Of a stretch of DNA of 64,000 bases, positions 11,023 to 64,000 are shown in pieces; the stretch's first letter is position 1; each line of letters begins with the position of its first letter. This DNA comes from Candidatus Poribacteria bacterium (GTDB lineage Bacteria > Poribacteria > WGA-4E > WGA-3G), in assembly GCA_965220065.1 (NCBI GenBank), contig OZ244804.1, positions 1,344,915-1,408,914 on the forward strand. Direction: 5' to 3'. A program made the position numbers and the translations under genes. The notes below the pieces were generated by a model, which worked only from the letters and a program-made list of their open reading frames with translations, made no database searches and was not told the DNA's origin.

Positions 11023-11181
11023 TTGAGGGTTCGGGGCAATCACTTTGTGGTGGACCTTAGAAGAAATCCGGGTGTTTGAAATCCAACCCCGACACGTTTT
11101 TCATTGACAACTTCATGGAAGTTAACATATCATATCCGATGAGCGTTGACCCGTTGCTATCGTTTAAAAGGAGTCGTAGAA

Positions 11182-12793: not shown

Positions 12794-12985
12794 CCCAAGT
12801 TGCTACTTATAAGATTTTAGGCATGTGGACCCCGCTTGTATTGCAAATCGTGGCGTATTTTCGGATTTTTGTAGCGTAAACTTTCAGTTTGCGCACGGAT
12901 ATGCACAATCTAAAAGATTATGCTACAAACTGGCAACTTCGGTCATTTAACCGCAATCCTCTGTCTGAAAAGGAGATATGAGCGC

Positions 12986-23627: not shown

Positions 23628-23667
23628 GATGTCTCTCCTACGCGGACTTTGTACTGGATTCCTAATC

Positions 23668-23696
23668 CTTATACCAAATTGCTTGGCACTTGTCAA
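23668..23696 (-). promoter_or_regulatory. Putative sigma-70 promoter for the enolase gene at 22467-23627
   Basis: Read on the minus strand: TTGACA, then a 17-nt spacer, then TATAAG. About 35 nt upstream of the ATG. Confidence 0.4.
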
Positions 23697-30183: not shown

Positions 30184-30193
30184 GACCAAGATT

Positions 30194-31318
30194 ATGAAAA
30201 TTACTGGATTTGAGACGATACCGATTCAAGGTCGCGCAATGGTGCTGAAAATGTTCACCGACGCAGGGATCATCGGCTACGGTGAACCCATGAACTACGA
30301 GCATTGGCGCGTTGTCGCCCAAGCCGTGGATGACATGGCAGAATACCTTATCGGTAAAGACCCGCTACAGATTGAAGACCACTGGCAGGCGATGTATCGG
30401 TCAAGTTATAGCCGAAGTATGCCAGTGTTGGTCGGGGCACTGAGCGGTATTGAAATGGCGATGTGGGATGTATTCGGTAAAGTCGTCGGGATGCCGATAT
30501 GGAAACTGCTGGGAGGTTCAGTACGTGAACGGATCCGCGTCTATACCGGTATAGGAGGCACAACACCTGACGAGTGTGCAGAGAGTGCTAAGAATGCAGT
30601 TATGTCAGGATTCCGTGCGGTGAAGATGGGAGCTGCACCACAGCCCGTGCGGTTTGTGGACACATCGAAGACGATTGATGCGATGGTGGCGCGGATAGCG
30701 GCAGTCCGAACAGCAGTGGGTGACGAGGTGGACATCGCTGTTGACTTGCATCGGCGTTTAAGTCCGACGATGGGAATGATTTTGGTGAAGGAATTAGAAC
30801 CCTTCCGATTGTTGTTCGCTGAAGAGCCGTGCCATCCAGAAAACAACGAACCCTTGCTGACGCTGTCTCGATCAACGACCGTGCCGATCGCGACCGGTGA
30901 GCGACATTTGACACGATGGGGGTTTCGGGAGATAATTGAACGCGAGATGTGCGCAATTTTGCAACCGGATATCCGGCACTGCGGTGGGATATTGGAACTG
31001 AAAAAGATTTCAGCGATGGCGGAGATTCACAATATGGCGATCGCCCCACACAACGCCGCCGGTCCTATCGGCGTTGCCGCATCGGTACATGTAATGGCGA
31101 CTGTGCCGAATTTACTGATATGCGAGGGTGGACACCGACGTGGCGAAGGACTATTTTCGACCCCTTTGGTGTTCAAAGACGGATTCATTGAATTGCCGAC
31201 AGCCCCCGGTCTCGGTGTGGATATGGACGATGCCGCTATTGAAGCGATTCGAGATGAGACGTTTCGGTTACGTGGTATGTTCTGGCACTCAGACGACGGG
31301 GCTTTCGCTGATTATTAA
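30194..31318 (+). CDS. Enolase-superfamily enzyme (MR/MLE family)
   Basis: 'MKITGFETIPIQGRAMVLKMFTDAGIIGYGEP'. Start at the internal ATG 30194, immediately after the upstream stop. Confidence 0.8.
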   Translation: MKITGFETIPIQGRAMVLKMFTDAGIIGYGEPMNYEHWRVVAQAVDDMAEYLIGKDPLQIEDHWQAMYRSSYSRSMPVLVGALSGIEMAMWDVFGKVVGMPIWKLLGGSVRERIRVYTGIGGTTPDECAESAKNAVMSGFRAVKMGAAPQPVRFVDTSKTIDAMVARIAAVRTAVGDEVDIAVDLHRRLSPTMGMILVKELEPFRLLFAEEPCHPENNEPLLTLSRSTTVPIATGERHLTRWGFREIIEREMCAILQPDIRHCGGILELKKISAMAEIHNMAIAPHNAAGPIGVAASVHVMATVPNLLICEGGHRRGEGLFSTPLVFKDGFIELPTAPGLGVDMDDAAIEAIRDETFRLRGMFWHSDDGAFADY

Positions 31319-34252: not shown

Positions 34253-35284
34253 TTATTGAACAGGTGGGGGTTCGACGTTTTCCAACAATCTATTGATGAT
34301 ATCCAAACTCGTGATCCCGTCCGCTTCTGCGTTGAAATTCGTCAGAATTCGGTGGCGTAGCACAGGTACAGCGACTGCCTTAATATCCTCATAAGCGACA
34401 TGATAACGTCCTTGTAGAATAGCGCGCGCCTTGGCTCCCAACACGAGATACTGCGATGCCCGCGGTCCGGCACCCCACTGCACCCAATCCTGAATGAAAT
34501 CAAGCGCATCTGAATCAGGTCGTGTCTGCCGATTTAATTCCACTGCATAATCCACGATCGCTTCGGCAATCGGTACTTTCCGGACGACCTGTTGTATTCG
34601 CAAGACCTCTTCTCCTGTGATCACAGGTTCTATCTCCGGTTCATACGCCGCAGTTGTTGTCATCACAATCTCTTTTTCCGCAGTTTTATCGGGATAATCA
34701 AGTGTGATATGGAACATGAATCGGTCGAGCTGCGCTTCAGGTAGCGGGTAGGTGCCTTCCTGCTCGATCGGGTTCTGCGTCGCTAAAACAAAAAATGGGA
34801 GTTCCAATGGATATGTTCTGCCGCCTGCGGTGACTTGGTACTCTTGCATCGCTTGTAGAAGTGCGGCTTGCGTTTTAGGGGGTGTTCGGTTAATCTCATC
34901 AGCAAGAACGACGTTAGCAAAGACGGGTCCATTGATAAACCGGAAGGCACGTTTCCCTGCCTCACCCTCCTCAATAATATCGGTGCCAATGATGTCCGAT
35001 GGCATCAGATCCGGCGTAAATTGGATTCGATTGAAAGGAAGTTCCAGAATCCGCGCGAATGTACTGATGAGTAGTGTCTTTGCTAACCCCGGCACGCCCA
35101 CCAGTAAACAGTGTCCCTGTGAAAAGAGTGCGATGAGAAGTTGCTCAATTACTTCGTCTTGTCCAATGATTCGCTTTCTGAGTTGGTTTAAAATATTTTC
35201 CTTCGCCCCCTCGACTGATGAAGTCAAGGCTTCGGCGGCTTCTATATCTGTTCCGTTCTGTGTCGCTGAGATGTCGTTTTTCAT
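34253..35284 (-). CDS. MoxR-family AAA+ ATPase
   Basis: 'LLVGVPGLAKTLL' Walker A. 'FNRIQFTPDLMPSDIIGT'. Confidence 0.85.
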   Translation of the reverse strand: MKNDISATQNGTDIEAAEALTSSVEGAKENILNQLRKRIIGQDEVIEQLLIALFSQGHCLLVGVPGLAKTLLISTFARILELPFNRIQFTPDLMPSDIIGTDIIEEGEAGKRAFRFINGPVFANVVLADEINRTPPKTQAALLQAMQEYQVTAGGRTYPLELPFFVLATQNPIEQEGTYPLPEAQLDRFMFHITLDYPDKTAEKEIVMTTTAAYEPEIEPVITGEEVLRIQQVVRKVPIAEAIVDYAVELNRQTRPDSDALDFIQDWVQWGAGPRASQYLVLGAKARAILQGRYHVAYEDIKAVAVPVLRHRILTNFNAEADGITSLDIINRLLENVEPPPVQ

Positions 35285-42049: not shown

Positions 42050-43780
42050 GTGGCAGAACAGACGACACCGAACCTCGTTTTCGTTATTACGGATGACCAA
42101 GGTTACGGCGATTTGGGGTGCACCGGAAACCCCGTTATCAACACACCGAACCTGGATGCACTCGCCGCAGAGAGTGTGCAACTACAGAATCTGCACGTCG
42201 GTCCCACCTGTTCACCGACCCGAGCGGGGATTATGACGGGGCATTATTGCAACTCCACGGGGGTATGGCATACCATTGGCGGACGCTCGCTGCTCCGTAG
42301 CGACGAGGTCACAATGGCAGACATCTTCCGACGCAACGGCTATAAGACCGGTATGTTCGGGAAATGGCATCTCGGCGACAATTACCCGTTCCGTCCACAC
42401 GACAGAGGGTTCGATGAAGCACTCTACCACGGTGGCGGTGGCATCAGTCAAACCCCCGACTATTGGGGCAACGACTATTTCGACGATACCTATTTCCGCA
42501 ACGGTTCAGAACAACCGTTTGACGGTTATTGTACGGATGTCTGGTTTCAGGAAGCAATGGCATTCATTGAGAGGCAGGCTGAAGGCGATCAGAACCGTCC
42601 GTTTTTCTGCTACCTCTCCACCAACGCACCGCACGGTCCATTCCGTGTCCCCGATGCCTACGGTGAGGTATACCGACGGAAAGGCGTGGAAGGCGATCGC
42701 GCGAATTTTTGGGGAATGGTCACCAATATCGACGACAACATGGCGAGACTCCGGCACCACCTCCGAGTCTTGGGGATTGAGGAAAACACGATCCTCATCT
42801 TCATGACCGATAACGGGTCCGCAATGGGATGCGACTTGGATGCCCAGCAGTTTGTCAGAGCTGGTTACAACGCCGGAATGCGCGGTAAGAAAGGATCGCC
42901 GTATGAAGGTGGACACCGTGTGCCGCTCTTTATGCATTGGCCCAGTGGTGGTTTCACTGAAAAGCACGAGGTGCATGAACTCACCGCAAATATTGACCTA
43001 CTCCCGACGCTGATAGATCTTTGCGATCTTGAAGTCTCCTCAAACGCACCCTTCCACGGCACCAGTATCGCACCGTTGCTGAGAAATGAAACGGAGACGT
43101 GGGAAGAACGGGTGATCGTCACCGATTCGCAGCGCGTTGAAAATCCGATTAAGTGGAAAGACAGCGCGACGATGTCGCAACAGTGGCGGCTTATCAATGG
43201 AACTGAGCTCTACGATATACAAGCCGATCCCGGACAACAGCACGACATCGCTGACGAACATCCGGAAGTCGTCGCGGAACTGCGTGAACATTATGAAGCG
43301 TGGTGGAAACTGGTTTCGGAGCGGTTTGATGAGGATTGTCCGATCGTCATTGGGACACAAAACGAACCCGTCACATGCATCACGACCCACGATTGGCACG
43401 GAGAAGGGCAGGCATGGAATCACGGGATGATTCGCCGAGGTTTGGAATGCAACGGCTATTGGGCAATTGAGATCCCTGAAGATGGAGAGTACAGTTTCGA
43501 GTTGCGTCGGTGGCCCCTCGCTGAAAATAGGGCGATAACGGACGGCATTCCGGGTGAGCATATCGATCTCTACAACGGTGGGAAGGCTCTGGCATTCACA
43601 GCGGCAAAAATCCGCGTCGGAGACGAGACTGCAACAAAAGTGATTCCACCGGATGCGAAGGGTGTAACGTTTACGTTCAATCTCACCGCCGGTCAGACGC
43701 GCATGCATACCGAGTTCGCCGACGAAACCGGTGAGTTGGCAATTGGGGCGTATTATGTGTATGCGAAACGGGTAATTTGA
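42050..43780 (+). CDS. Sulfatase (formylglycine-dependent arylsulfatase family), apparently cytoplasmic
   Basis: 'VFVITDDQGYGDLG...CSPTRAGIMTG' (C-x-P-x-R). GTG start with AGGAGA RBS. No signal peptide. Confidence 0.8.
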   Translation: MAEQTTPNLVFVITDDQGYGDLGCTGNPVINTPNLDALAAESVQLQNLHVGPTCSPTRAGIMTGHYCNSTGVWHTIGGRSLLRSDEVTMADIFRRNGYKTGMFGKWHLGDNYPFRPHDRGFDEALYHGGGGISQTPDYWGNDYFDDTYFRNGSEQPFDGYCTDVWFQEAMAFIERQAEGDQNRPFFCYLSTNAPHGPFRVPDAYGEVYRRKGVEGDRANFWGMVTNIDDNMARLRHHLRVLGIEENTILIFMTDNGSAMGCDLDAQQFVRAGYNAGMRGKKGSPYEGGHRVPLFMHWPSGGFTEKHEVHELTANIDLLPTLIDLCDLEVSSNAPFHGTSIAPLLRNETETWEERVIVTDSQRVENPIKWKDSATMSQQWRLINGTELYDIQADPGQQHDIADEHPEVVAELREHYEAWWKLVSERFDEDCPIVIGTQNEPVTCITTHDWHGEGQAWNHGMIRRGLECNGYWAIEIPEDGEYSFELRRWPLAENRAITDGIPGEHIDLYNGGKALAFTAAKIRVGDETATKVIPPDAKGVTFTFNLTAGQTRMHTEFADETGELAIGAYYVYAKRVI

Positions 43781-47376: not shown

Positions 47377-48276
47377 TTAACGATTTCTCTGGATAAAACC
47401 GGCTCTGTGGAGTTCCTGTAAAATAAAGGGTTCTACAGGCATATCACTTTGTAGTTGTGCATAGCCAATCCCTTGGTCGGTACAGAAACGTTGCAGTGTT
47501 TCACAAAATGTCTGTTGCTGATTCTGGTATTGTGAGAGCGTTTCGGGATTAATTGTGATGGCTCTCGTTTCACCGGTTTCGGCATCCTCTACCAACCAGT
47601 CTCCTCCTGTAGGTGTGTTTTCCAAGTATACCTGTGGGTTTATCTCCTCTGGACTTGTCAGATGAATGGCTGTGAGTGAGAAGCCGCGTCCTGTAAGCAG
47701 TTTGAAGCCCTGTTCGTAACCATTTGGGTCTAAAAAGTCGGAAAGGACGGCGACCGCGCACGGGTGGCGTTGATACATTGGGAGTTGCCTGAGACATTCC
47801 GTCAGCCGCGTTTGCCCATGTGTTGCAATTGTGTTCAAAACCTGTGTGAGACGTGAAAATTGTGATGTGCTCGATGCGGGTGGCAGTGCCGCCGAGAGCC
47901 GTTCGGCGCAAGTATAGACAGCAATACTATCCGCGTGTCCTAAAGCGATATAGCCTAACGCCGCAGCGATCTGTTTGGCACACGTTAACTTGGTTGGTGA
48001 GCCAAACTCCATAGAACGACTGTTATCAATGAGGAGGGCAAGCGGTAATCCCTCGTCGGCGTGGAAGAGTTTGATGAAGAGTTTCCCTAAGCGGGCGTAG
48101 ATGTTCCAATCGACATGCCGTAGGTCGTCGCCGGGTTCATAAACCCGATAATCGGCGAACTCCATACCTACACCACGGTTCGGACTCCGTCGTTCGCCCC
48201 TGAATTTACCTCGAAATGAACGGTTAGATCGGATATGGAAGGGTTCAAGTTGCTTCAGGAATTGCGGTGTAAGCAT
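47377..48276 (-). CDS. DUF58 (vWA-like) protein
   Basis: 'DYRVYEPGDDLRHVDWNIYAR'. Confidence 0.75.
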   Translation of the reverse strand: MLTPQFLKQLEPFHIRSNRSFRGKFRGERRSPNRGVGMEFADYRVYEPGDDLRHVDWNIYARLGKLFIKLFHADEGLPLALLIDNSRSMEFGSPTKLTCAKQIAAALGYIALGHADSIAVYTCAERLSAALPPASSTSQFSRLTQVLNTIATHGQTRLTECLRQLPMYQRHPCAVAVLSDFLDPNGYEQGFKLLTGRGFSLTAIHLTSPEEINPQVYLENTPTGGDWLVEDAETGETRAITINPETLSQYQNQQQTFCETLQRFCTDQGIGYAQLQSDMPVEPFILQELHRAGFIQRNR

Positions 48277-53412: not shown

Positions 53413-54492
53413 TTATGCGTACTGTTCTAATACGTTTCGGTTGATATCAATACCTAATCCGGGTGCCTGGGGAACGTCAACGTATCCATCAACGGCATTT
53501 ATCGGTTGCTGTGCCAACGCCGTACGGAGACGGTTCTCGGTCATATCGAATTCCAACAGCGAAGGGATCGGGTTGAGTGCTTGGGGTGCATCTGGAAGTG
53601 TAGCTTGCCAGTGCAGCGTCGCCGCGAGGCGGATACTACCGCCCCACATGTGGGGCAATACCCGAACATAGTTCGCACTCGCCATAGCCGCGATTTTTCG
53701 GCACTCCGTAAAACCGCCTGCAATGCTCAGATCGGGTTGCACAATATCCAATCCCCGTTCCTGTAGCAGGTCTCGGAACGCCCAACGTCCCTTCAGCATC
53801 TCGCCACCAGCAATTCTCACCTTCAGTGCGTGTCGAATCTCCCGATAGCCTGTCACATCGTCACTCGTAATCGGTTCCTCATACCAGAAGAGGTCGGAGT
53901 CCAGAAGTTTCTGTCCGACATCAATCGCAGTCCCGACATCGTAGCCACAATTGGCGTCGACAGCGAAGAGGGTATCGTCCCCAATGGCGCGTCGAACCGC
54001 GGCAACGTTCTTCACATCGTAAGCCTCACCGAAACCGACTTTCATCTTGACAGCGGGGAATCCTGCATCGACGTAGCCTTTCGCTTCGTCCATCAACGCT
54101 TGAGTTATGTCGGGTTTGTCTTTCTTGAAGAGTCCACTGGCGTAAGCCGGGATTTTTGATCGAAACGCGCCACCGAGGAGTTGATAGATCGGCATATCAA
54201 GTGCCTTGCCCATGATGTCCCAGAGTGCGATGTCTATCCCGCTCAGCGCGCCGATATCACCGCGCATCGCCTCCCAAATCCGTTCCGTTTCAAAAGGCGA
54301 TTGTCCGATCAGGTGTGCTTCAACTGCTGAGGGGGACGGAACGCTCACACCTTCACCCCAGCCGGTAATGCCAGCATCTGTGCGAATTTCGACAACGATG
54401 GCGGTTCGCGCGTTCGTCCAACCGCGTGAGTTCGCGAAGGGTTCAATGAGTGGATAGCGTAAGTTGTATGTTTTAACGTCGGTGATTTTCAT
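53413..54492 (-). CDS. Enolase-superfamily enzyme (MR/MLE family)
   Basis: 'MKITDVKTYNLRYPLIEPFANSRGWTNARTAIVVEIRTDAGITGWGEG'. Confidence 0.8.
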   Translation of the reverse strand: MKITDVKTYNLRYPLIEPFANSRGWTNARTAIVVEIRTDAGITGWGEGVSVPSPSAVEAHLIGQSPFETERIWEAMRGDIGALSGIDIALWDIMGKALDMPIYQLLGGAFRSKIPAYASGLFKKDKPDITQALMDEAKGYVDAGFPAVKMKVGFGEAYDVKNVAAVRRAIGDDTLFAVDANCGYDVGTAIDVGQKLLDSDLFWYEEPITSDDVTGYREIRHALKVRIAGGEMLKGRWAFRDLLQERGLDIVQPDLSIAGGFTECRKIAAMASANYVRVLPHMWGGSIRLAATLHWQATLPDAPQALNPIPSLLEFDMTENRLRTALAQQPINAVDGYVDVPQAPGLGIDINRNVLEQYA

Positions 54493-54895: not shown

Positions 54896-55660
54896 TCAGC
54901 GGCCGGCAGTCAGTTTTAGGTTGCCCCATGTTGTTGTGAGTTTGCCGCTAGGTGTTATGGCAAATCCACCACTGTTCGGAATGCTATCGCCAGTGACAGT
55001 TATGTTATCAAAGCGTGCCGTGTAATTCGCAAGACCGAAACCTACACCCCCTGTCAAGAAGTCGGGAAATTCATCAAAATTAAATTCCTCATGTTGAACC
55101 CCCCTGAGGACCAGAAGTTCCGTGGGTTCCATCACTTGCTTTTCATCGATCCAGAAGGTAACGATGTTATCCTGAACGCCTAACTTTAGATGTGCCCACT
55201 TATTCAACCTTAAAAGCGGGTGAGGTTCAGCATGAAGGCGTACAAATATTACATCGTGAAAATTGCCATAGTTGCAATATACCCCTTCCTCAGGGATGCC
55301 CTCACCATCAACCAGTACTACCGTATCAGCAATGCGGCAGGAAACTACCCACGTCCCGTTCACGCGCGCGGCAATCGCGATAGCCCCGATACCGTGTTTT
55401 TTGAGCGGCTTGACATCAAATTCTATAGTATAATCCTCCCACGTTTTATCACCTGTTGTGAGTAAACGCATAGCCGGATCAGGACTTACGGCGTGGAGTT
55501 CATCATTGACAATCTCCCAAGAACCGGGTGCTTCCTTCAACTGGACAAGCTCCCGCCATCCGTCCAATTTCTTGCCATCAAAGGTTTCCAGAAATGTGCC
55601 TGACCAGCCGGAAAAGGGCAAGAGAAAAAGAACAGTGACAATACACATGAATTTCATCAT
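54896..55660 (-). CDS. Secreted DUF1080 (3-keto-disaccharide hydrolase-like) protein
   Basis: Signal peptide. 'GTFLETFDGKKLDGWRE...WEIVNDELH'. C-terminal '...TTWGNLKL'. Confidence 0.7.
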   Translation of the reverse strand: MMKFMCIVTVLFLLPFSGWSGTFLETFDGKKLDGWRELVQLKEAPGSWEIVNDELHAVSPDPAMRLLTTGDKTWEDYTIEFDVKPLKKHGIGAIAIAARVNGTWVVSCRIADTVVLVDGEGIPEEGVYCNYGNFHDVIFVRLHAEPHPLLRLNKWAHLKLGVQDNIVTFWIDEKQVMEPTELLVLRGVQHEEFNFDEFPDFLTGGVGFGLANYTARFDNITVTGDSIPNSGGFAITPSGKLTTTWGNLKLTAGR

Positions 55661-55717: not shown

Positions 55718-58618
55718 CTATAGTTTTTCGAGGGGGATGTGAAACATCTTGCCATGCCGAGTAGCAATATAAAGTTTATCGTTGCTGACAACAAGAGAAC
55801 CGACCTCATCTGGAACACTTGGGGAAATCTGATGCCATCTCTGACGGTCATTCAAACGATAGACCCCTGTATCACCAGCACCATAAACGTTGGTATGATC
55901 GACAGCGAGTCTATCGATGACGAGACGTTCACCCATTTCATCGGTGAGCACACGCCAGTGTTCGCCGTTCTGTGAAGCCAAGACGCCTTCGTCCGTTGCG
56001 ACATAAACCGTTGATCCCACAAAGACTATCTCTTTGAAATCGATAAAATGGAGCGGAAGGATCGGTGTGAGGTCTTTCCAACTGTTTCCTTCATCAAGTG
56101 ATTGAAACAGTTTACCATTCCGTTTACCGACGTAGACGGTTTCTCCTGAAACTGCTAACTTAAAGCCTTTATCGGATCTGTCATTAAGCGATCCACTGGT
56201 ATCTATTAACCCGGTATCTGTCCATTCCGAGTCGCCGGGTTTCCACCTGAAGAGCCGGTGCTTCCATTCGGCGTAGAACGTCTGTCCACTGACTGCGAAC
56301 CCGCCAATTCGGCTATAGTCTGTAACTAAGGACGCTACTACTTCTGGAAAGTCCTCGTTTCCTTCACTATTACCTGACAGAAGTCCCTGTGTGAGTGCTT
56401 CTGTCCATGCCACCAACTCAGTAGACGAGAGTTCCCGTTCAAAAGTGGGCGCCCTTTGAACCGGGACAAATGTGTTGTCACCTACAGATAATTGAAAAAG
56501 GCGTAGGTTGTCTTTTCCAGGAGCAATTCCATAAAGAGCGTCTCCAGCAGTTTCTAACTGTGAAGCGAGAGAGAAATGAAGCGGAGAAAACTCTTCTTCT
56601 ATCCCTTCACGCTTCTGTTTAGGTGTCTCAATTCCAACGGTTTCCCACACCTCACCCCCGTCAACTGACTGGACGATTCCTCTATCGGTACGTGCATAAA
56701 GTCTATTGTTGACCGTAACGAGATCCTGTATTGTCGTTTCCGTTATCCCATTCGTAAATGGGTGCCATGATTTGCCGCCATCGGTTGTGCGATGAACACC
56801 AAATGAACCGCCCTTGTAAAAAGTGTTCTTGTTTGTCGTTACGACTCCTTGTGGTAAAAACGTTTCGCCGGTGTGCACCAGAGTTACCGCACCAAGTGCT
56901 GTACTCCTAAAGGGGGATTCATTTCCGTGCGTTATTTCAGTCCACGATGCTCCTAAGTCGGTTGAGTGGAAAACCCTCTCTAAATTTGGGCTGTCCGTGA
57001 TGTGTATCTGTACTGTAATATTTTCAATATTTTCGCTTGATTCGAGAAACTTCCATCTTGATGGCTCAGGTCCCGTTACAACATAGAGATTATTTTCAAA
57101 AACGGTTAGAGACAGGATGGCGTGTTGGGACGGATGAACCGATAATCGCTCCCAGATATCTGAATTGAGGCGATAGAGTCCCTTGTTTGTACCAGCAAAT
57201 ATTGTGTTTCCAACCGCGGCTACTGCGTAAACAGTTTCGTCTGTGAGTCCATTTTCCAAAAGATTCCACTGGGCACCAGCATCTGTGGATCGGAAAACAC
57301 CTTTGGTTTGAAGGCCGAGATACATTACAGGACGTGGTTGTGAGTTATATTTATCTGTTTCATTCATGACGATAAGTCCAACGGCATGTCCCTCTGGTCG
57401 GGAGCAAAGGACCTTCCACGTTTCACCATTATTCGTTGAAGCGAATATTTTGTCGGTGGAAACAATATAGAGGGTGTCGGCATGTTCTGCCATTGGCATC
57501 CGGAACCGTCCGCTTGGTATACTCGTATTGATGCGCGTCCATGTGGTTGCGTCCGATGCGAGTCTATAGATACCCGTCGGTGCAGCAGCGTAAAGGACAC
57601 TTTCAGACGTAACGAAAAGATCCAGGACGGTACCTCCGTAGGGTCCATTTGTTTGTGTCCATTGTGAAGTGGAGAACTTAGCGGAATCCTCCTGTGTATT
57701 GGGTGCTAAAACCGTCTCGGTGATTTGTTGACCGATCCCTCTGCTTTCACTCGGAATAGCGGCATGCCCGACCTGACGCCGCACAGCAGGCTTTGAATCA
57801 ACATTAAGCACAATAGGGGCATCAACGATTTCAATTGTGGGTTCAGATTGTGCCTCAAAACTGTAGGGCTTCTGAAAACGGGTAATGTATTGATTGCTTG
57901 CACCCAGCAGCAACAAAACCACGATGACAGTCGCGCCAAAAGCCGTCCACGGGAGCAGGGGTTTCCCAACAGGAGGCGGTGTCGGTTTCAGGTCAGCGAC
58001 CTGCTGCATGATGTTCTCAGTTAGGCTGGTGGGTAATTGGACACCGCCGAGTACATCGCTCACCAAAAGTTCCTCTTTCTCTTGCAAACGCTTTCGTGCC
58101 CGATGCAGTCGACTGTGAATCGTCTTCACAGACACACCCAAGAATTTACCGATTTCCTTCGCGTTCATTTCGCCGAGGTAGTAAAGCGTCACGACCGTGC
58201 GTTCGCTCTCCGGCAGTCTGGCGAGAAGTTTTTTGACGATTTCACTGCGGCGTTCAGAGGTTTCTGTCTCGCGCTGCTCCGATACATAACGGATATAGGA
58301 GAATTTCTCTATTTCTTCCGTAGATGTCCCATCCAGCGATTGCATCGTGGGTTTCTTCTTCCGGATCCAATTCAGGCAAAGTCTATTTGCGATGACATAG
58401 AGCCACCCCGCAAACTGGTTCAGATCCTTGAGTGTTGAGAGTTTTTTGTATGCCTGAAGGAAGGTATCTTGTGTGATTTCTTCAGCGTGATGAAAGTCAC
58501 CAATCTTCCGCCACGCAAGGGCATGGACACTTTTTCTGTATTTCTGAACCAAGGTGCTAAACGCGGTGTCGTCGCCTGACAAAACACTGCGAATCAGTTG
58601 AACATCATCTCTTTCCAT
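55718..58618 (-). CDS. ECF sigma-70 factor fused in one polypeptide to a TM helix and a ~720-aa extracytoplasmic BNR/Asp-box beta-propeller domain
   Basis: Sigma region 2, 'HHAEEITQDTFLQAYKK'. Region 4 HTH, 'AKEIGKFLGVSVKTIHSRLHRARKRL'. TM 'LLPWTAFGATVIVVLLLLGA'. Six or more S-x-D-x-G-x-x-W boxes (STNNGETW, STDAGAQW, STDLGASW, TTDGGKSW, SVDGGEVW, SLDEGNSW). Confidence 0.75.
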   Translation of the reverse strand: MERDDVQLIRSVLSGDDTAFSTLVQKYRKSVHALAWRKIGDFHHAEEITQDTFLQAYKKLSTLKDLNQFAGWLYVIANRLCLNWIRKKKPTMQSLDGTSTEEIEKFSYIRYVSEQRETETSERRSEIVKKLLARLPESERTVVTLYYLGEMNAKEIGKFLGVSVKTIHSRLHRARKRLQEKEELLVSDVLGGVQLPTSLTENIMQQVADLKPTPPPVGKPLLPWTAFGATVIVVLLLLGASNQYITRFQKPYSFEAQSEPTIEIVDAPIVLNVDSKPAVRRQVGHAAIPSESRGIGQQITETVLAPNTQEDSAKFSTSQWTQTNGPYGGTVLDLFVTSESVLYAAAPTGIYRLASDATTWTRINTSIPSGRFRMPMAEHADTLYIVSTDKIFASTNNGETWKVLCSRPEGHAVGLIVMNETDKYNSQPRPVMYLGLQTKGVFRSTDAGAQWNLLENGLTDETVYAVAAVGNTIFAGTNKGLYRLNSDIWERLSVHPSQHAILSLTVFENNLYVVTGPEPSRWKFLESSENIENITVQIHITDSPNLERVFHSTDLGASWTEITHGNESPFRSTALGAVTLVHTGETFLPQGVVTTNKNTFYKGGSFGVHRTTDGGKSWHPFTNGITETTIQDLVTVNNRLYARTDRGIVQSVDGGEVWETVGIETPKQKREGIEEEFSPLHFSLASQLETAGDALYGIAPGKDNLRLFQLSVGDNTFVPVQRAPTFERELSSTELVAWTEALTQGLLSGNSEGNEDFPEVVASLVTDYSRIGGFAVSGQTFYAEWKHRLFRWKPGDSEWTDTGLIDTSGSLNDRSDKGFKLAVSGETVYVGKRNGKLFQSLDEGNSWKDLTPILPLHFIDFKEIVFVGSTVYVATDEGVLASQNGEHWRVLTDEMGERLVIDRLAVDHTNVYGAGDTGVYRLNDRQRWHQISPSVPDEVGSLVVSNDKLYIATRHGKMFHIPLEKL

Positions 58619-58647: not shown

Positions 58648-60072
58648 TCAAATATCCAACCTAAAGAATTTCAGAAACGCCACGGTTGTTAACGCTGCCG
58701 CAAAGAAGCAGAGCAGCAAAACATCCACTATAGACCGGCGCAACGTTTCACCTAAGGAAGTTACGACCAAATTCGGCGGTGGCGCGATTTTTTCCTCACT
58801 TGACTCAGATGGATTCATGCGAACTGCTATTTGCATTATCTGTGCAAAGGGATCATCTGAGATATGAGAGAAATAATCTGTATTGAGTTGTGCATAGTAG
58901 GATTCACCGGTTTGGAAGTAGGTATTCCTTTTGAGTTTTCCTGTCTGCGTTAAGTTCATGACGAGAAAGGTTAAGGAAGACGTGGGTGTGATTCGGGAAA
59001 GCGTCTCGCCCACGGATTCTTGCCTCAATTTTTCACGTTGATAGGCTCTATCAATCTTGTTCGCTTGATCCTCAAATTTCAGCCGATATTCCTTCTCAAT
59101 AGGTTCGCGGAGTTCTTGTAAAGTATCCTCGCCATCTGTTCTTATCTCAAGGCGGCCTCCTGTGGCATCCATAATTTTTTTTGTGATCTTCTCATCCTTC
59201 TCTGCATTGAGATTGTTGCGGACTGCTGTCTTTTCCATATAGACACTCTGTACTGTTCGAGTGGGTGCGATGAGTTTCGCGGTAACAAAACCAGCCCGTG
59301 GTGCAATCAACACAGCAAATACCCAGAGCGTAAAAGCGACGATGAGTGCCGTTTTGGAATCGTCCAGATAGGTGGAGATCACCGTTCCTATCGCAAAAAA
59401 CACCGCAATATAGAGCATTGAAGCTCCTGTTAGGCTGAGTACCCGTGGAAAAACGTCGGGCTCACCCAATGGGAACCCTTGCCAGACAAGCACGAGTAAA
59501 CCGAACAGGAATGAGACTAAGAACGGGATGACGAAGACGATGTATCCGCCGATCAACTTACTCCATAGAAAAAGATCGCGCGGTAACGCATTTGCTAAGG
59601 TAATTCGCAGTGTCCCGGCTTCTCTTTCCCCTGCAACGGCGTCAAACGTAAACAGGAGGGCGAGCAAACTGAAAACGGTGCTGACGACAAACAGAAAGTC
59701 AAGATGTCCTAAAGCATAAGAAAGTGGTGCTTCCGCCAATGTTGTTGAACCCCGTCTGACACCATTACGGGTCATTCCAAGATAGGTAGGGAGTGCTTCC
59801 TCTAACCCGTTCGCGAAGACGCTCAACGGCGTGGGGTTGAGATATAGTTTGGAAACCTCCTTATCTGGATCCTGGGCATTTGGCGGATCCTCTTTCGCTT
59901 TAGCATTTGCGCGTTTAACTGCCTCCTGATAGTCTACCTGATTCTGACGATAGTGTCGATAATTGATAGAAAGCGTGAGCGGTATGAGCAGGACACACAT
60001 CAAAAGGAGCGCGACGAACCGGACGCTCAAAATGTGATGCATCATTTCTTTCTGAATTAAGGTCATTAACAT
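58648..60072 (-). CDS. Permease-like polytopic membrane protein (ABC-2-permease-like N-terminus, coiled-coil region, C-terminal TM), paralog A
   Basis: Start set at MLMTLIQKEMMHH by homology with paralog B. GGAGA RBS. The conserved upstream 110 bp is shared with 63840-63940. Confidence 0.5.
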   Translation of the reverse strand: MLMTLIQKEMMHHILSVRFVALLLMCVLLIPLTLSINYRHYRQNQVDYQEAVKRANAKAKEDPPNAQDPDKEVSKLYLNPTPLSVFANGLEEALPTYLGMTRNGVRRGSTTLAEAPLSYALGHLDFLFVVSTVFSLLALLFTFDAVAGEREAGTLRITLANALPRDLFLWSKLIGGYIVFVIPFLVSFLFGLLVLVWQGFPLGEPDVFPRVLSLTGASMLYIAVFFAIGTVISTYLDDSKTALIVAFTLWVFAVLIAPRAGFVTAKLIAPTRTVQSVYMEKTAVRNNLNAEKDEKITKKIMDATGGRLEIRTDGEDTLQELREPIEKEYRLKFEDQANKIDRAYQREKLRQESVGETLSRITPTSSLTFLVMNLTQTGKLKRNTYFQTGESYYAQLNTDYFSHISDDPFAQIMQIAVRMNPSESSEEKIAPPPNLVVTSLGETLRRSIVDVLLLCFFAAALTTVAFLKFFRLDI

Positions 60073-60415
60073 TAAGGTGTCTCCGTTTCCAAATCGGGAT
60101 ATGATACGCTTCAACTAATAAAGACACAATTTTAGAGGAAAAACTTGCATAATCTGAAAAAATCAGAGGAATTAAGATTTTAAGGTAAATGGGACTTATA
60201 CGATGGTTTAAAATTGTCTGATACACTGATATTATGAAAACATTAACCCTTTCTGAAAAGAGACAACTGCTATTAGTGGATTATAGCCAATTTCTATTAG
60301 CAAGTTTCCATAACTTCACGCACATCTACTCTGCAACACATACCCGGGATGGAATCATAATCAACTTAATCGGTTTCTGCGACTAGAACACCTTCTCGTC
60401 TGCGAATTCTAATAC

Positions 60416-61171
60416 CTAAAACTTCTTCAACTGTCCCCAAATCATTGCAAGTTTCGATTGAGGTAATACCGATAACCCACCCTTATTTGGAATATTGTTA
60501 CCAATGATGGTGATATTGTCGAATCTTGCCGTGTAATTAGCGAGACCGAAACCGGCACCGCCTGCTGGGTGGTTCGCGATGTTTCCTACCTTTAACATGA
60601 GTTCTTTACCGTCATGTAGGAAGATAAAGGGATCTCCTGTTTCCATAATTTTTCTTCCATTTATCGAAAAAATGAAATGATCTCCTCTAACGCTCAACTT
60701 GAGTTTAGACCATTTATTTGATTTTAAAAGCCGGTGAGGTTTTATTGACAGTGCTTCACCTATGTTTCCAGCAAAATCACGACTGCTACACATCGCTTTT
60801 GATTCAGGGTCGTTTAAGAAGAGATCAGAAATCGTACACCAAACTGTCCGGCTTCTTTCAACCCGTGCGACAATACTGATATTTCCGGGACCGCGTTTTT
60901 CAAGAGGCTTGACGTTAACCTCAATACTATAATCTTGCCATGTTTCATCACCTGTCGTAAAAAAGCGGGCGCCTCCTCCAGGGTTTGTCATCTCGAGTTC
61001 ACCATCAACAATTTCCCATGAACCGGGTGCAGCATCATGCGCGTTAAGTTCCCTCCAATCTTTTAAAGCATCCTCATCAAAAGTTTCCACGAATGTACCT
61101 GCCCAAACAGAGGAGGTGAGGAGAAGTATACCTAATCCAATGCTTAACACTTTCATAATGTTACCTTTCAT
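60416..61171 (-). CDS. Secreted DUF1080 protein
   Basis: Paralog of 54896-55660: 'GTFVETFDEDALKDWRE...WEIVDGELE', with C-terminal '...MIWGQLKKF'. Confidence 0.7.
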   Translation of the reverse strand: MKGNIMKVLSIGLGILLLTSSVWAGTFVETFDEDALKDWRELNAHDAAPGSWEIVDGELEMTNPGGGARFFTTGDETWQDYSIEVNVKPLEKRGPGNISIVARVERSRTVWCTISDLFLNDPESKAMCSSRDFAGNIGEALSIKPHRLLKSNKWSKLKLSVRGDHFIFSINGRKIMETGDPFIFLHDGKELMLKVGNIANHPAGGAGFGLANYTARFDNITIIGNNIPNKGGLSVLPQSKLAMIWGQLKKF

Positions 61172-61468: not shown

Positions 61469-62293
61469 CTAAAACGCCTTCCGTTTAATATTGCCCCATG
61501 TCGTAGCGACCTTATCTTTCGGCGAAACCGAGAGCAAGGGACCCCGCATTGTCTTCCTGACTTCATCTTCACTGAGCGCACGATTCCATATCGCGACTTC
61601 ATCGATGGAACCGTCTTCAAAGGCGGACTGTGGCTTATTCTTCACACAACCAATCCGCAAATCCTCTTCATTGACGCCCTTGAAATTAATGTTAGCTTTG
61701 TCTATAGGTTGGATTATAATCTCTCCGTCAAGATACATCTTCACACCTCTACGCTCACAGACCCCCACAATGTGATGCCACTTTTTATCCTCCATTGTAT
61801 TATCAACCATATGGAGTTGCTGGACTTCACCGGTCCCTAATACAATTCCAATACCGGAGTCCCTCTTAAACAATCCAGCACCACCAAGTTCCTTCTCATC
61901 AAAGACTGCCATACCGTATACACTATGGGGGTCCCCGCCACGAGTCCCTTTATCAAACCACTGCGAAGAACGTCCCTTCCAATTCTCGTGATACACCCAT
62001 GCCATCATCGTGATTTCCTCAGTGATTTCTAATTTATGGGAGGCTGGCACATTCACACAATCTTCAGTTTCGCCAGTGATACGGATCGCATTCCCGTATT
62101 TACCCTCGACAAATTTAGCATTTTTGATCACTTCAGCATCCAGACCGTTCCCGGATTCATCAAGGATCTGCTTGCCATTAACGTTGTCAAACGTGAAGTA
62201 AACAACAAGCCCTTCAGTGAGATCTGCTGTAGTATATCTTGCTGTGATAAATATCAAAACAAATAATAAAAGTTGGAGAAATACATGTCTCAT
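61469..62293 (-). CDS. Secreted LamG/DUF1080-like jellyroll protein
   Basis: Start ATG 62293 with a perfect GGAGG RBS. Signal peptide. 'GNGLDAEVIKNAKFVEGKYGNAIRI' LamG-like. C-terminal '...TTWGNIKRKAF'. Confidence 0.6.
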   Translation of the reverse strand: MRHVFLQLLLFVLIFITARYTTADLTEGLVVYFTFDNVNGKQILDESGNGLDAEVIKNAKFVEGKYGNAIRITGETEDCVNVPASHKLEITEEITMMAWVYHENWKGRSSQWFDKGTRGGDPHSVYGMAVFDEKELGGAGLFKRDSGIGIVLGTGEVQQLHMVDNTMEDKKWHHIVGVCERRGVKMYLDGEIIIQPIDKANINFKGVNEEDLRIGCVKNKPQSAFEDGSIDEVAIWNRALSEDEVRKTMRGPLLSVSPKDKVATTWGNIKRKAF

Positions 62294-62408
62294 TTTTGTC
62301 CTCCTATTGGATTTTCCAAACAAAAAGCCTCAATAAACCGAAGTAGAATAAAATAGAGTTTGAAGGCAATTAAATTCCCTCATAATTCCAAACTCTGACG
62401 TTTTCCGC

Positions 62409-63839
62409 TCAAATATCTGTGCGGAAGAATTTCAGAAATGCCACGGTTGTTAGCGCAATTGCGAAGAAACAGAGTAGTATCGCGTCCACAACCGATCGAC
62501 GGAATGTCTCTCCTAAGGGCGTTATCTCTAAAGGGGAGGGTTGTGTGATTTTGACACCCGCATGGTGATGTCCCTTATAGGTATGGTCTGAAATTTTGCT
62601 GAACACCTCCGTGTCAAGTCTATCCCAGTAGCGATTTCCTGCTTGCAAGTAGTTGCTTCTTTTTCCCTTTCCGGTTTGTGTCAAGTTCGTCGCGAGATAG
62701 ATTAAAGAAGATGTGGGTGTCATTCGGGAGAGCGTCTCACCGATTTGCTCTTGTCGTTCTGTTTCACGTTTGTAATCGCGGTCGAGTTTATCAGAGTGGT
62801 TTTGGAATTTTAAGCGATATTCCTCTTCAAGCGGTGCCATGTGCGCATCGATTTTTTCCGCGTTTTTTCCACCCGGCATGATGAACGTGATCCTGCGTCC
62901 CATCTCATCCGTTATCTCGTCCCATTCGAGCTGAGACATTATTTTCTTTTTTTCCTTTTCGAGGGTTGTATTGAAATCTTCTCGCATCGCTGTTTTCTCC
63001 ATATAGACGCTCTGCGGCGTTCGTGTCGGGGCAATGAGTTTGGCTGCCAGAAACCCAACGCGTGGTGTAATCAGTACGGCAAACACCCAAACAGTAAAGG
63101 CAACGATGAGTGCCGTCTTGGCACTATCGAGGTAGATGGAAATCACCGTCCCTATCGCGAAAAACACGGCGATATAAAGTAAGGAGACGAGGGTTAAACT
63201 GAGTACTCGTGGAAAAATGTCGGACTCACCGAGCGGAAACCCTTGCCAAACGATTAAGAGTAAACCGAAGATAAACGACACCAAGAAGGGAACAACAAAC
63301 ACAAGGTATCCGCCGATCAACTTGCTCCATAGGAATACGTCGCGCGGGAGGGCGTTCGCTAAAGTAATCCGCAACGTCCCTGCTTCTCTTTCCCCGGCAA
63401 CGGCATCGAACGTAAACAGCAACGCAAGCAGACTAAAAACTGTCCCGACCACAAAGAGAAAATCGAGATGCCCCAGCAGATAGGAAAGTGGTGAGGCAAT
63501 TAAAGCATCGGGTCCCTGTGTAATCCCATTGCGTGTTATACCCAGATAACTCGGGAGCACGTTTTCGAGTCCGTTTGCGAAAACGCTCAAAGGTGTCGGT
63601 TTGAGAAAGAGTTTGGAAACTTCCTGTTCCGGTTTAGGGGGTGAGTTCGGATTCACTTCCGCCTCTTCAAGGTTTGCCCGTTTAATGGCTTCTTGATAGT
63701 CCACTAAATTTTGGCGATAATTGCCGTAATTGATATGCAAGGTAAGCGGAACAAGCAACAGACACATCAAAAGGAGCGCGACGAACCGGACGCTGAGAAT
63801 ATGATGCATCATTTCTTTCTGAATTAAGGTCATTAACAT
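62409..63839 (-). CDS. Permease-like membrane protein, paralog B (about 70% aa identity to paralog A)
   Basis: The N-terminus, TM core and C-terminal TM align with 58648-60072. Confidence 0.5.
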   Translation of the reverse strand: MLMTLIQKEMMHHILSVRFVALLLMCLLLVPLTLHINYGNYRQNLVDYQEAIKRANLEEAEVNPNSPPKPEQEVSKLFLKPTPLSVFANGLENVLPSYLGITRNGITQGPDALIASPLSYLLGHLDFLFVVGTVFSLLALLFTFDAVAGEREAGTLRITLANALPRDVFLWSKLIGGYLVFVVPFLVSFIFGLLLIVWQGFPLGESDIFPRVLSLTLVSLLYIAVFFAIGTVISIYLDSAKTALIVAFTVWVFAVLITPRVGFLAAKLIAPTRTPQSVYMEKTAMREDFNTTLEKEKKKIMSQLEWDEITDEMGRRITFIMPGGKNAEKIDAHMAPLEEEYRLKFQNHSDKLDRDYKRETERQEQIGETLSRMTPTSSLIYLATNLTQTGKGKRSNYLQAGNRYWDRLDTEVFSKISDHTYKGHHHAGVKITQPSPLEITPLGETFRRSVVDAILLCFFAIALTTVAFLKFFRTDI

Positions 63840-63930
63840 TAAGGTGTCTCCACTTCCAAATCGGGATATGATACGCTTCAGTTAATAAAGACACAATTTT
63901 GAGGGCAAAACTTGCATAATCTGAAAAATA

Positions 63931-64000
63931 TCAAATATCTGTGTGGAAGAATTTCAGAAATGCCACGGTTGTTAGCGCAATTGCGAAGAAACAGAGCAGT
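63931..64000 (-). CDS. Permease-like membrane protein, paralog C (3' end only; truncated by the window edge)
   Basis: 63941-64000 is about 95% identical to 62411-62470. It encodes '...LLCFFAIALTTVAFLKFFHTDI*'. Confidence 0.4.
   Translation of the reverse strand, partial: LLCFFAIALTTVAFLKFFHTDI

Follow-up and report, generated by a model that had tools for sequence, protein, structure and literature searches.

The regulation of extracytoplasmic function (ECF) sigma factors by extensions fused to the sigma domain is the second most common mode of ECF regulation, having been assigned to 19 groups (PMC7826278). Several of these fused proteins span the membrane, including IutY in ECF243, the actinobacterial groups ECF48, ECF52 and ECF53, and ECF263, in which 5-7 transmembrane (TM) helices are present (PMC7826278, PMC8999054). 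Among fused sigma factors, experimental proof of release exists only for IutY of Pseudomonas putida, which is cut by Prc and subsequently by RseP (PMC5411451, PMC8999054), with RseP acting after the periplasmic part has been trimmed to approximately 50 residues (PMC5411451; PMC8999054). Here we describe a gene of this general kind from Candidatus Poribacteria, a sponge-symbiont bacterium, identified in a stretch of 64,000 nucleotides (assembly GCA_965220065.1, contig OZ244804.1, positions 1,344,915 to 1,408,914) that is hereafter termed the window. The gene, at 55718-58618 on the minus strand, encodes an ECF sigma domain, a single TM helix and a large BNR (Asp-box) beta-propeller region in one polypeptide of 966 amino acids (aa). 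The product is a one-component trans-membrane signalling sigma factor, in which a cytoplasmic ECF sigma domain is tethered to a periplasmic propeller sensor, and it is highly probable that it functions as such a fused sigma-sensor.

The window protein resembles IutY in combining an N-terminal ECF sigma domain, one TM helix and a periplasmic regulatory domain in a single polypeptide. IutY, however, possesses a FecR-type anti-sigma/pro-sigma region and a FecR periplasmic domain, and receives its signal from the TonB-dependent receptor IutA, whereas the window protein gave no FecR match or other anti-sigma domain (ASD) signal, had no partner TonB-dependent receptor adjacent to it or elsewhere in its locus, carries a BNR propeller of approximately 650 aa, and has a sigma domain similar to SigW and sigma-E rather than FecI; it therefore falls outside the IutY/ECF243 type. 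Proteins of ECF48/52/53, such as SCO4117, contain a zinc-binding anti-sigma (ZAS) domain and 1-2 TM helices, with a carbohydrate-binding domain in SCO4117, and their activation is predicted to be proteolytic (PMC8999054). In these proteins too, the ECF sigma domain is followed on its C-terminal side by TM helices and extracytoplasmic sequence, but their extensions contain a zinc-finger (ZAS-type) anti-sigma domain and measure at most about 400 aa, whilst the window protein gave no ZAS match and has a C-terminal extension of approximately 745 aa. The Planctomycetes group ECF57 has WD40-like C-terminal extensions and occurs at approximately 5.3 copies per genome (PMC7826278, PMC8999054). It shares with the window protein lineage specificity, multiple copies and long C-terminal extensions rich in beta-propeller repeats. 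By description the two are nevertheless set apart, in that ECF57 is WD40-like, has been proposed to act through protein interactions and has two conserved cysteines that link sigma-2 and sigma-4, whereas the propellers described here are of the BNR/Asp-box or Kelch type, are rendered extracytoplasmic by a TM helix, and accompany a sigma part whose sole cysteine is C81. Precedents for the design principle exist in other bacteria. The combination found here, its family expansion, the swapping of sensors, the sigma-less paralogues and the cognate promoter are, so far as could be judged from the literature that was accessible, undescribed, and our literature search found no paper linking Poribacteria with ECF sigma factors.

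The gene and the parts of its product were located as follows, confidence in AlphaFold2 (AF2) models being given as the predicted local distance difference test (pLDDT) score:

55718-58618, minus strand: complete open reading frame (ORF) of the sigma-TM-propeller protein, 966 aa, with an ATG start (ORF lister)
58352-58552, minus strand: sigma-70 region 2, aa 23-89 (Pfam PF04542, E 1.3e-13; AF2 pLDDT 80-93)
58076-58243, minus strand: sigma-70 region 4, aa 126-181 (Pfam PF08281, Sigma70_r4_2, aa 126-178, E 2e-15; PF04545)
57989-58036, minus strand: cytoplasmic linker helix, aa 195-210 (LPTSLTENIMQQVADL), followed by the Pro-rich KPTPPPVGKP (helix present in both AF2 models, at low confidence)
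57896-57958, minus strand: single TM helix, aa 221-241, with conserved P223, G228, G239 and N242 (hydropathy maximum 2.19 at aa 221)
57809-57880, minus strand: periplasmic juxtamembrane motif, aa 247-270 (RFQKPYSFEAQSEPTIEIVDAPIV), recognized by its conservation; candidate site-1 processing or docking element
56624-57664, minus strand: first beta-propeller lobe, approximately aa 319-665, with Asp-boxes at aa 394, 444, 552, 611 and 651 (AF2, Foldseek)
55721-56623, minus strand: second beta-propeller lobe, approximately aa 666-966, with an Asp-box at aa 840 (AF2, Foldseek; HVO_0234-like match at aa 871-958)

The translation contained no internal stops, and a GGAG ribosome binding site was present 7 nt 5' of the ATG. 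The question of a missed stop codon between the sigma and TM parts was addressed through a comparison of homologues rather than reads. A search of a collection of 5.8 billion proteins retrieved more than 120 clusters that keep the fusion, at 62-100% identity and all 956-1008 aa in length; the sigma and propeller Pfam domains occurred together in every one of them, many on contigs of 5-6 Mb. Our own ORF calling and phmmer searches in 84 fetched loci (designated by L and a number) recovered 115 intact fusions of 896-1075 aa together with 12 shorter sigma-containing ORFs, and split or truncated forms in metagenome-assembled genomes (MAGs) were seen in L052 (sigma, 262 aa, and propeller, 642 aa), L041 and L001 (17311-18225). 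Because the fusion was intact across clusters and loci, and the gene order of L003 was identical to that of the window, the comparison indicates that the 966-aa fusion is a real protein and excludes a missed stop for practical purposes. The first-pass annotation of this DNA, made from the sequence alone, had proposed exactly such a single-polypeptide ECF sigma - TM - BNR propeller protein, encoded by one uninterrupted 966-aa ORF with sigma-70 regions 2 and 4. Both statements were corroborated, the ORF by the ORF lister, translation and Pfam, and the fusion by Pfam, the clusters and species-representative genomes; the stop or frameshift that the annotation had named as its refuting case, by which the gene would resolve into a sigma/anti-sigma pair, was not upheld.

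The N-terminal part matched Pfam Sigma70_ECF at aa 7-181 and scored 107.1 bits against TIGR02937 (sigma70-ECF, NCBIfam), passing the family cut-off of 42.9 bits. As in ECF (group 4) sigma factors, regions 2 and 4 were matched, with no match to region 3 or region 1. A first AF2 run at full length returned the sigma and linker parts at low confidence; with a more diverse alignment of aa 1-330, pLDDT values of 80-93 were obtained for sigma-2 and 71-86 for sigma-4. The nearest solved relatives were SigW (5wuq, E 7.6e-29) and sigma-E (1or7, E 1.8e-19). The cut-offs of the SigW (ECF30-type) equivalog models were missed, with 120 against 209 bits for NF007223 and 108 against 243 bits for TIGR02948; since the former score lies so far below its cut-off, the sigma part is assigned as closest to SigW and sigma-E, yet not as a SigW orthologue. 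Mean identity among orthologues was highest in sigma-4 (93%), with 87% in sigma-2, and on these alignments the strongest constraint falls where it would be expected for a working output domain.

Only about 40 residues lie between the end of sigma-4 (approximately aa 181) and the start of the TM helix (approximately aa 221), and these comprise one helix and a Pro-rich stretch. The helix was 77% identical among orthologues and was kept across paralogues as GGxQLPxxLTExIM. Residues 182-220 include neither Cys nor His, and so lack the H-x3-C-x2-C zinc-binding anti-sigma signature of the ECF48/52/53 type. No Pfam match of the fusion protein to ASD, ZAS, FecR, zf-HC2 or RskA was obtained at E<=1, NCBIfam was likewise without an ASD signal, and in the AF2 model of aa 1-330 all residues after 183 had pLDDT <40, the linker adopting no docked pose on the sigma domain. 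By both profile searches and modelling, no conventional anti-sigma domain is recognisable. The label 'sigma/anti-sigma fusion' is thus too strong, and the covalent sigma/anti-sigma that had been proposed at first reading was overstated.

The single TM helix predicted at the same time was recovered by hydropathy as one segment at approximately aa 221-241, no second segment exceeding 1.6 in the scan of the fusion protein. A single pass with the N-terminus inside and the C-terminus outside, together with the conserved P223, G228, G239 and N242, is compatible with a site-2 protease substrate, of which cleavage is predicted. The juxtamembrane motif that follows (about aa 242-270) was 85% identical among orthologues, above the propellers (65-67%), and the spacer at aa 271-318 was 61% identical. 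The motif was common to all subfamilies, including the sigma-Kelch fusions and sigma-less paralogues described below. Such a pattern of conservation would be anticipated where a diversifying sensor is attached to an output domain and transmitter that are themselves conserved.

Four strict S-x-D-x-G-x-x-W Asp-boxes were identified in the ectodomain (aa 444, 552, 651 and 840), against 0.003 in residue shuffles, along with two relaxed motifs (aa 394 and 611) against 0.10; the 'at least six' Asp-boxes counted previously are therefore obtained when the relaxed motif is included, and not with the strict one. Pfam propeller models (DUF6242, Sortilin-Vps10, BNR and HVO_0234) matched over aa 389-958, and the repeated motifs, the BNR and Sortilin-Vps10 matches and the AF2 fold all place the ectodomain among BNR/Asp-box propellers. 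In the full-length AF2 model the propellers (aa ~320-966) mostly had pLDDT values of 75-90. Foldseek searches against the Protein Data Bank (PDB) returned firstly the GH74 xyloglucanases 2cn2 and 5fkq (E ~1e-22, ~800 aligned columns, TM-score ~0.47, identity 13-17%), followed by the periplasmic sensors BT4663, BT4673 and BT3049 of Bacteroides hybrid two-component systems (HTCS; E 1e-15 to 1e-17) and PorZ. The ectodomain is accordingly modelled as a two-lobed, GH74-like tandem propeller, and not as the single propeller of sialidase or Ycf48 type that had been considered typical.

The GH74 enzymes share with the window protein two propeller lobes with Asp-box repeats and are its best structural match, but no GH74 chain in the PDB was matched by the propeller sequence at phmmer E<=0.01, the sole hit being an Asp-box-level match to 3b7f, and nothing suggests enzymatic activity in the window protein. 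The HTCS sensors are similar in being inner-membrane-anchored tandem beta-propellers of approximately 700 aa, one of which, BT4663, binds heparin/heparan sulfate; their output differs, in that a module of histidine kinase, receiver and AraC parts takes the place of the sigma factor, and their resemblance to the window propeller is one of fold class only (identity 10-11%, TM-scores 0.2-0.3). On the models, the Bacteroides HTCS tandem propeller nonetheless appears the better structural analogy for the sensor than ECF/anti-sigma/SusC systems. The predicted propeller fold is compatible with glycan binding, and to that extent the glycan sensing proposed for the locus stands, with GH74 enzymes and HTCS sensors leading the Foldseek results; the genes behind the family promoter, considered below, point to no specific glycan.

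A scan of species representatives (one genome per GTDB species) yielded at least 594 matching stretches and at least 582 confirmed relatives. The best 80 of these relatives were all full-length and all but 2 were titled Poribacteria, with several chromosomes harbouring 3-4 loci each; every named source of the more than 120 protein clusters was also Candidatus Poribacteria. When aa 246-966 alone were used in a HMMER search, 509 representatives were retrieved at <1e-30, and 51 of the best 150 had an N-terminal sigma domain together with a TM helix starting from ~216-221, their identity falling as low as ~34%, the remainder being mostly fragments or giant multi-BNR proteins. Fusions were often found in tandem arrays of 2-4, as in L070, which has four, and genomes carried at least 3-7 paralogues, a lower bound drawn from the fetched loci alone. 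The gene described at first pass is therefore real and, judging from these searches, is one member of a large paralogous family so far found only in Poribacteria, an extent that its description as one gene had not captured.

The sensor portion of the family proved exchangeable. Sigma-TM-Kelch fusions of 655-669 aa were present in L002 (19846-21855) and L007 (14587-16554), in which the sigma domain, linker helix, TM helix and juxtamembrane motif were nearly as in the window protein and a Kelch propeller replaced the BNR lobes. A region of L001 (17311-19243) resembles a frameshifted or split version of the sigma-Kelch gene. A second poribacterial subfamily of approximately 900-925 aa (query P0215) includes sigma-less relatives of approximately 735-796 aa. 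On three independent contigs, sigma-less paralogues were situated 22 nt 3' of a full fusion:

L082, 5001-7226: sigma-less paralogue with linker helix, TM helix, juxtamembrane motif and propellers
L083, 5001-7241: sigma-less paralogue of the same composition
L084, 5001-7220: sigma-less paralogue of the same composition, the three being 739-746 aa in length

These proteins begin exactly at the linker helix (MIEETLGGFQLPPTLTQEIMRRIP...) and retain the TM helix, juxtamembrane motif and propellers. They may serve as co-receptors or decoys. The helix-TM-motif-propeller unit would appear from these alignments to be an autonomous module, present with or without a sigma domain, which hints at a separate role for the linker helix, for instance in sigma binding or dimerisation.

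Upstream regions of the fusions and of the ABC-2 permease genes that accompany many of them (129 in total) were utilized for the enumeration of bipartite k-mers. The pair GCAACCTTT-N14-CGTCA and related pairs occurred in 14-25 sequences, against at most 7 in shuffles. A position weight matrix (PWM) was then refined from the fetched loci only, with the window sequence excluded, giving the consensus ATGCA(A/C)C.TTT-N~12-AAAT..(C/T)GT.TC(A/T)TTA, or TGCA(A/C)..TTT-N12/13-GTNTC in short form. The layout is that of a classic ECF promoter, with an AAC-type -35 element (GCAAGTT/GCAACCT), a spacer of ~16 nt and a -10 element of CGTC, GTATC or GTGTC. The SigW-RsiW system of Bacillus subtilis (ECF30) and the sigma-E-RseA system of Escherichia coli are alike in both sigma domain and promoter type (AAC -35, ~16-nt spacer, CGT/GTC -10), as judged from the generally known SigW and sigma-E consensus sequences, and differ in that a second, independent polypeptide supplies the anti-sigma function through its class I anti-sigma domain. 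When 81 loci (2.66 Mb) were scanned on both strands, 149 matches to the PWM reached >=18 bits, compared with 0 when the sequences were reversed, and nearly all lay on the strand of the fusion. Seventy of the 149 were directly upstream of fusions, 15 of ABC-2 permeases, 4 of DUF1080 genes and 27 of other genes, and 32 had no called ORF of >=100 aa downstream. Sigma domains sharing a -35 class had an identity of 0.68, compared with 0.60 for those of different classes, a suggestive difference that is confounded by phylogeny and is not taken as a sign of insulated specificity.

In the window, the promoter copies and the genes surrounding the fusion were as follows:

60119-60149, minus strand: ECF-type promoter TGCAAGTTTT-N6-AAAATTGTGTCTTTA (PWM match to 60151), 46 nt upstream of the ABC2a ATG
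58648-60072 (ORF to 60114), minus strand: ABC-2 permease 'ABC2a', with 6 TM helices and a large loop (Pfam ABC2_membrane_2, E 4.5e-32)
54896-55660, minus strand: secreted DUF1080-family protein, copy a, 57 nt 3' of the sigma fusion (Pfam)
63886-63916, minus strand: second copy of the ECF-type promoter (PWM match to 63918), 46 nt upstream of the ABC2b ATG
62409-63839, minus strand: ABC-2 permease 'ABC2b', 67% identical to ABC2a (Pfam, alignment)
61469-62323, minus strand: secreted LamG/concanavalin-like protein, possibly co-transcribed with ABC2b (Laminin_G_3, E 1e-18; N-terminal hydrophobic segment)
60416-61171, minus strand: secreted DUF1080/3-keto-disaccharide-hydrolase protein, copy b (Pfam; signal-peptide-like N-terminus)
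63931-64000, minus strand: C-terminal end of a third ABC-2 permease paralogue (...LTTVAFLKFFHTDI and stop), cut by the window edge

The two promoter copies were the only strong PWM matches in the window, both on the minus strand, and were accompanied by one weak match of 10 bits elsewhere; the exact pattern TGCAAGTTTT-N6-AAAATTGTGTCTTTA occurred twice, against 0.00 expected. As the putative target promoter of the sigma domain (aa 1-190), the pattern may also be written TGCAAGTTTT-N6-AAAATTGTGTC. A scan for generic sigma-70 promoters and terminators across 53-64 kb of the window performed no better than shuffles. The true start of ABC2a is probably the ATG at 60072 (MLMTLIQ...) rather than the TTG at 60114, given the alignment with ABC2b and the promoter position. 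From the stop codon of ABC2a to the start codon of the sigma fusion there are only 29 nt, with no promoter motif among them, so that the simplest reading places the fusion second in a P(ECF)-ABC2a-sigma(-DUF1080) operon. As in autoregulated ECF operons, an ECF-type promoter stands ahead of the ABC2a-sigma unit, and the sigma factor, which would recognize this promoter, is probably positively autoregulated, as ECF sigma factors commonly are. DUF1080 copy a is probably part of the same transcript; the order fusion-then-DUF1080 was also observed in L003 and L060.

ABC2a and ABC2b (60072-60160 and 63839-63927, minus strand) were near-identical through the promoter, the 46-nt 5' untranslated region and the initial ~26 codons, although the two proteins share only 67% identity overall, which suggests gene conversion or a strong constraint on the leader. 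Since the window copies may be duplicates of one another, the independent evidence for the promoter is taken to be the match of the window to a consensus derived from other loci. L003, at 90% identity, has the exact gene order of the window, ABC2-ABC2-LamG-DUF1080-ABC2-fusion-DUF1080-MR_MLE-DUF547-GFO, and each of its three ABC-2 genes, arranged as in the window, lies behind its own copy of the motif. An ABC-2 gene was found upstream of every checked orthologue down to ~60% identity (L001-L007, L015, L017 and L060), and was directly adjacent to the fusion in L001-L003, L006, L007, L015, L017 and L060. Across the whole family, it was within 3 kb upstream of 28 of 89 fusions and adjacent in 12. 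No ABC ATPase homologues were found in the 64-kb window. The secreted DUF1080/LamG and multi-copy permease neighbours noted by the first-pass annotation were all confirmed, amounting to two DUF1080 genes, one LamG gene, two ABC-2 genes and the end of a third.

Beyond the ABC-2 genes, the family promoter preceded LamG genes in L001, L002 and L007 and DUF1080 genes in 4 loci. The other promoter-linked genes encoded 244-aa ABC ATPases (L029, L039 and L067), an ABC fusion protein, a MacB/FtsX permease and LamG proteins, as well as PD40 and WD40 propellers (L027 and L015), a glycosyltransferase, an AhpC/TSA-domain (peroxiredoxin-like) protein and a Trypsin_2-TPR protein. The motif is duplicated in L029, at 432-464 and 521-553, 89 nt apart, upstream of a 581-aa family-1 glycosyltransferase. 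No SusC/TonB-dependent receptor, SusD or glycoside hydrolase recurred behind the family promoter. No TonB-dependent or SusC-like receptor was present in the operon and none recurred among the 84 related loci; the sole TonB-dependent receptor of the window, at 1424-3649, is 52 kb away. The putative regulon thus consists, by promoter position, of envelope and secreted proteins and is not a SusC/D-like system, and the analogy drawn earlier with Bacteroidetes ECF/anti-sigma/SusC systems finds the genomic context against it. Trypsin_2 was considered as a dedicated site-1 protease and rejected, having been found in two loci, of which that in L021 is a trypsin-TPR protein, and not recurring beside fusions. 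A 702-aa protein carrying at least 11 WD40 repeats and lacking a sigma domain is encoded at 12920-15028 (plus strand) of the window, where no promoter motif was found.

SigW and sigma-E are freed via regulated intramembrane proteolysis of a single-pass anti-sigma factor. Around the observed architecture, conservation, family membership, promoter motif and positions, and sensor fold, a mechanism of proteolytic release can be proposed by analogy with IutY. Without a signal, the sigma domain would be held at the membrane, unable to form free holoenzyme. An event at the propeller, either ligand binding or the loss of a partner, would expose the conserved juxtamembrane segment to a site-1 protease, after which the TM helix, with its abundance of Pro, Gly and Asn, would be cut internally by a site-2 protease. 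The freed sigma factor would then transcribe from family ECF promoters, including that of its own ABC2a-sigma(-DUF1080) operon, resulting in positive feedback, and would also drive the paralogous ABC2b(-LamG-DUF1080) unit. Release through regulated proteolysis had been suggested from the outset, and it remains the best mechanism for which there is precedent in IutY (PMC5411451, PMC8999054), although the sequence reveals no legible protease site; we lean towards it, at slightly better than an even chance.

Several observations weigh against this mechanism and the autoregulatory circuit attached to it. Apart from the unreadable protease site, no site-1 or site-2 protease genes were found in the window and none recurred in the loci. 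With no detectable anti-sigma domain, the inactivity of a tethered sigma factor has no explanation here, and the membrane-tethered transcription factors ToxR and CadC are active without release. The link between sigma factor and promoter is drawn from position and family-wide co-occurrence, and only 54 of the 89 evaluable fusions had a strong motif upstream of their own unit. The two window promoters lie in near-identical blocks of ~100 nt, whose mutual identity could stem from duplication or gene conversion and not from independent constraint, and the putative regulon, as noted, does not indicate a particular glycan.

The alternative that survives best is that the sigma factor works whilst anchored, in the manner of ToxR or CadC, with the propeller acting via conformation or oligomerisation on a largely cis-proximal regulon, the DNA being held near the membrane by co-translational insertion. 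It would accord with the undetectable anti-sigma domain, with a linker of ~40 aa that is conserved in sequence and length rather than disposable, and with motif-bearing targets that lie a few kb from the fusions on the same strand and encode mostly membrane or secreted proteins; nor is any protease gene consistently associated. That proximity is, however, biased by sampling, as the scan covered only the surroundings of the fusions, and a tether of 40 aa may pose steric problems for the formation of holoenzyme. The literature searched held no report of a sigma factor active whilst anchored, and IutY, the only characterised fused example, requires cleavage by RseP (PMC5411451). We consider this alternative unlikely.

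Two further alternatives assign the control of the sigma factor to other elements, and both are distinctly improbable. In the first, the co-transcribed ABC-2 permease would be the real sensor or regulator, either through BceAB-like flux sensing or as a polytopic anti-sigma partner holding the linker or TM helix, and the propeller would be a scaffold or secondary input. The presence of an ABC-2 gene upstream of each checked orthologue, mostly adjacent and behind a common promoter, is in keeping with this, for anti-sigma factors are typically co-transcribed with their sigma factor. The sigY gene of B. subtilis shares a transcript with yxlFG, which encode an ABC transporter. SigY itself is regulated by the anti-sigma proteins YxlC and YxlD (PMC7826278). 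The low proportion of fusions with an ABC-2 gene within 3 kb argues, however, that the permease is not a general requirement; elsewhere, ABC-2 genes and ATPases sit behind promoter copies of their own, as outputs, and the large propeller is kept in every member.

In the second, which we rate no higher, the linker helix (aa 195-210) would itself serve as a minimal anti-sigma element, built into the protein and occluding sigma-2 or sigma-4. Activation would be conformational, with or without proteolysis, and the sigma-less paralogues would act in trans as anti-sigma factors or decoys. Its family-wide conservation and its retention as the entire cytoplasmic part of the sigma-less paralogues, 22 nt 3' of a fusion on three contigs, speak for such a role. 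A helix of ~16 aa is, however, far below the size of a class I anti-sigma domain, the region beyond residue 183 had AF2 pLDDT <40 with no docked pose, and the ASD signal was absent in both Pfam and NCBIfam. Regulatory C-terminal extensions that contact the sigma core do have precedent in ECF41 and ECF42 (PMC7826278, PMC8999054).

It is very improbable that the protein is primarily a membrane-anchored periplasmic glycosidase of GH74- or sialidase-like type whose sigma-like N-terminus is a degenerate relic. GH74 enzymes were the best structural matches, and a sub-threshold NCBIfam match to the 'F510_1955 family glycosylhydrolase' was recorded (102.6 bits against a cut-off of 175); yet the sigma domains are the most conserved portion, exceed the ECF family threshold and co-occur with an ECF-type promoter, the GH74 match is absent at sequence level with 13-17% identity to the GH74 structures, and Kelch can replace the propeller with the sigma module retained. 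An assembly or annotation artefact, in which a conventional sigma/anti-sigma pair was joined through a missed stop or frameshift, has in its favour the few split or truncated MAG forms and is of negligible probability. More than 120 independent clusters keep the fusion unbroken, as do the 115 genes recovered from 84 loci, many long-read chromosome-level assemblies among them; the linker is conserved in frame at the amino acid level, and the ~40 aa from sigma-4 to the TM helix could not accommodate a stop codon, an intergenic stretch and the N-terminus of an anti-sigma factor. Both this reading and the enzyme-only one can in effect be discarded.

The remainder of the window encodes four PhyH-family (phytanoyl-CoA dioxygenase-like) paralogues (11146-11985, 15220-16023, 16140-16964 and 26403-27155). 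With four mandelate racemase/muconate lactonizing enzyme paralogues of the enolase superfamily (19380-20507, 22467-23696, 30116-31318 and 53413-54492), a sulfatase (42050-43780), a BNR_2 sialidase-like protein (29119-30183), a periplasmic pectate lyase (3688-5508) and the TonB-dependent receptor at 1424-3649, the region is rich in genes for sugar-acid and glycan catabolism. A sigma-54 enhancer-binding protein of GAF-PAS-AAA+-HTH_8 architecture (8857-11022, plus strand) has an N-terminal Rieske [2Fe-2S] domain, to our knowledge an unusual sensor domain for such proteins, and its divergent neighbour of 613 aa (6236-8077, minus strand) also starts with a Rieske domain. A MoxR-type AAA+ ATPase (34253-35284, minus strand) and a DUF58/VWA protein (47377-48276, minus strand) represent parts of a MoxR-vWA type system, 12 kb apart. 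Other genes encode a 690-aa DUF6785 and DUF6784 protein (17243-19315, plus strand; E 9e-154) and a 402-aa ORF (73-1281, plus strand) that had no Pfam match at E<=1e-5.

ECF sigma factors with a fused regulatory part are a recognised class, at times termed one-component systems among sigma factors. Only one membrane-spanning fused sigma factor, IutY, has been studied experimentally, and the Poribacteria family represents a second and very different case. It is distinguished by having no recognisable anti-sigma domain, a large propeller of Bacteroides type, a swappable sensor and a predicted cognate promoter suited to reporter assays. For synthetic biology, a sigma factor with its own transmembrane sensor and a defined promoter could provide a compact orthogonal sensor chassis. 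More tentatively, and with rather low probability in our view, the family may constitute a set of plug-and-play 'sigma receptors' and a distinct mode of ECF signalling, in which one transmitter cassette is joined to interchangeable BNR or Kelch propellers, with many paralogues bearing promoter variants, sigma-less decoys or co-receptors, and no classical anti-sigma domain. If this were true, the sigma factor might act whilst anchored, on neighbouring genes for envelope proteins, and the family would possibly be the main route by which Poribacteria sense the host matrix. The family is abundant in an uncultivated phylum of sponge symbionts, and the signals to which it responds would bear on the perception of the sponge extracellular matrix by Poribacteria.

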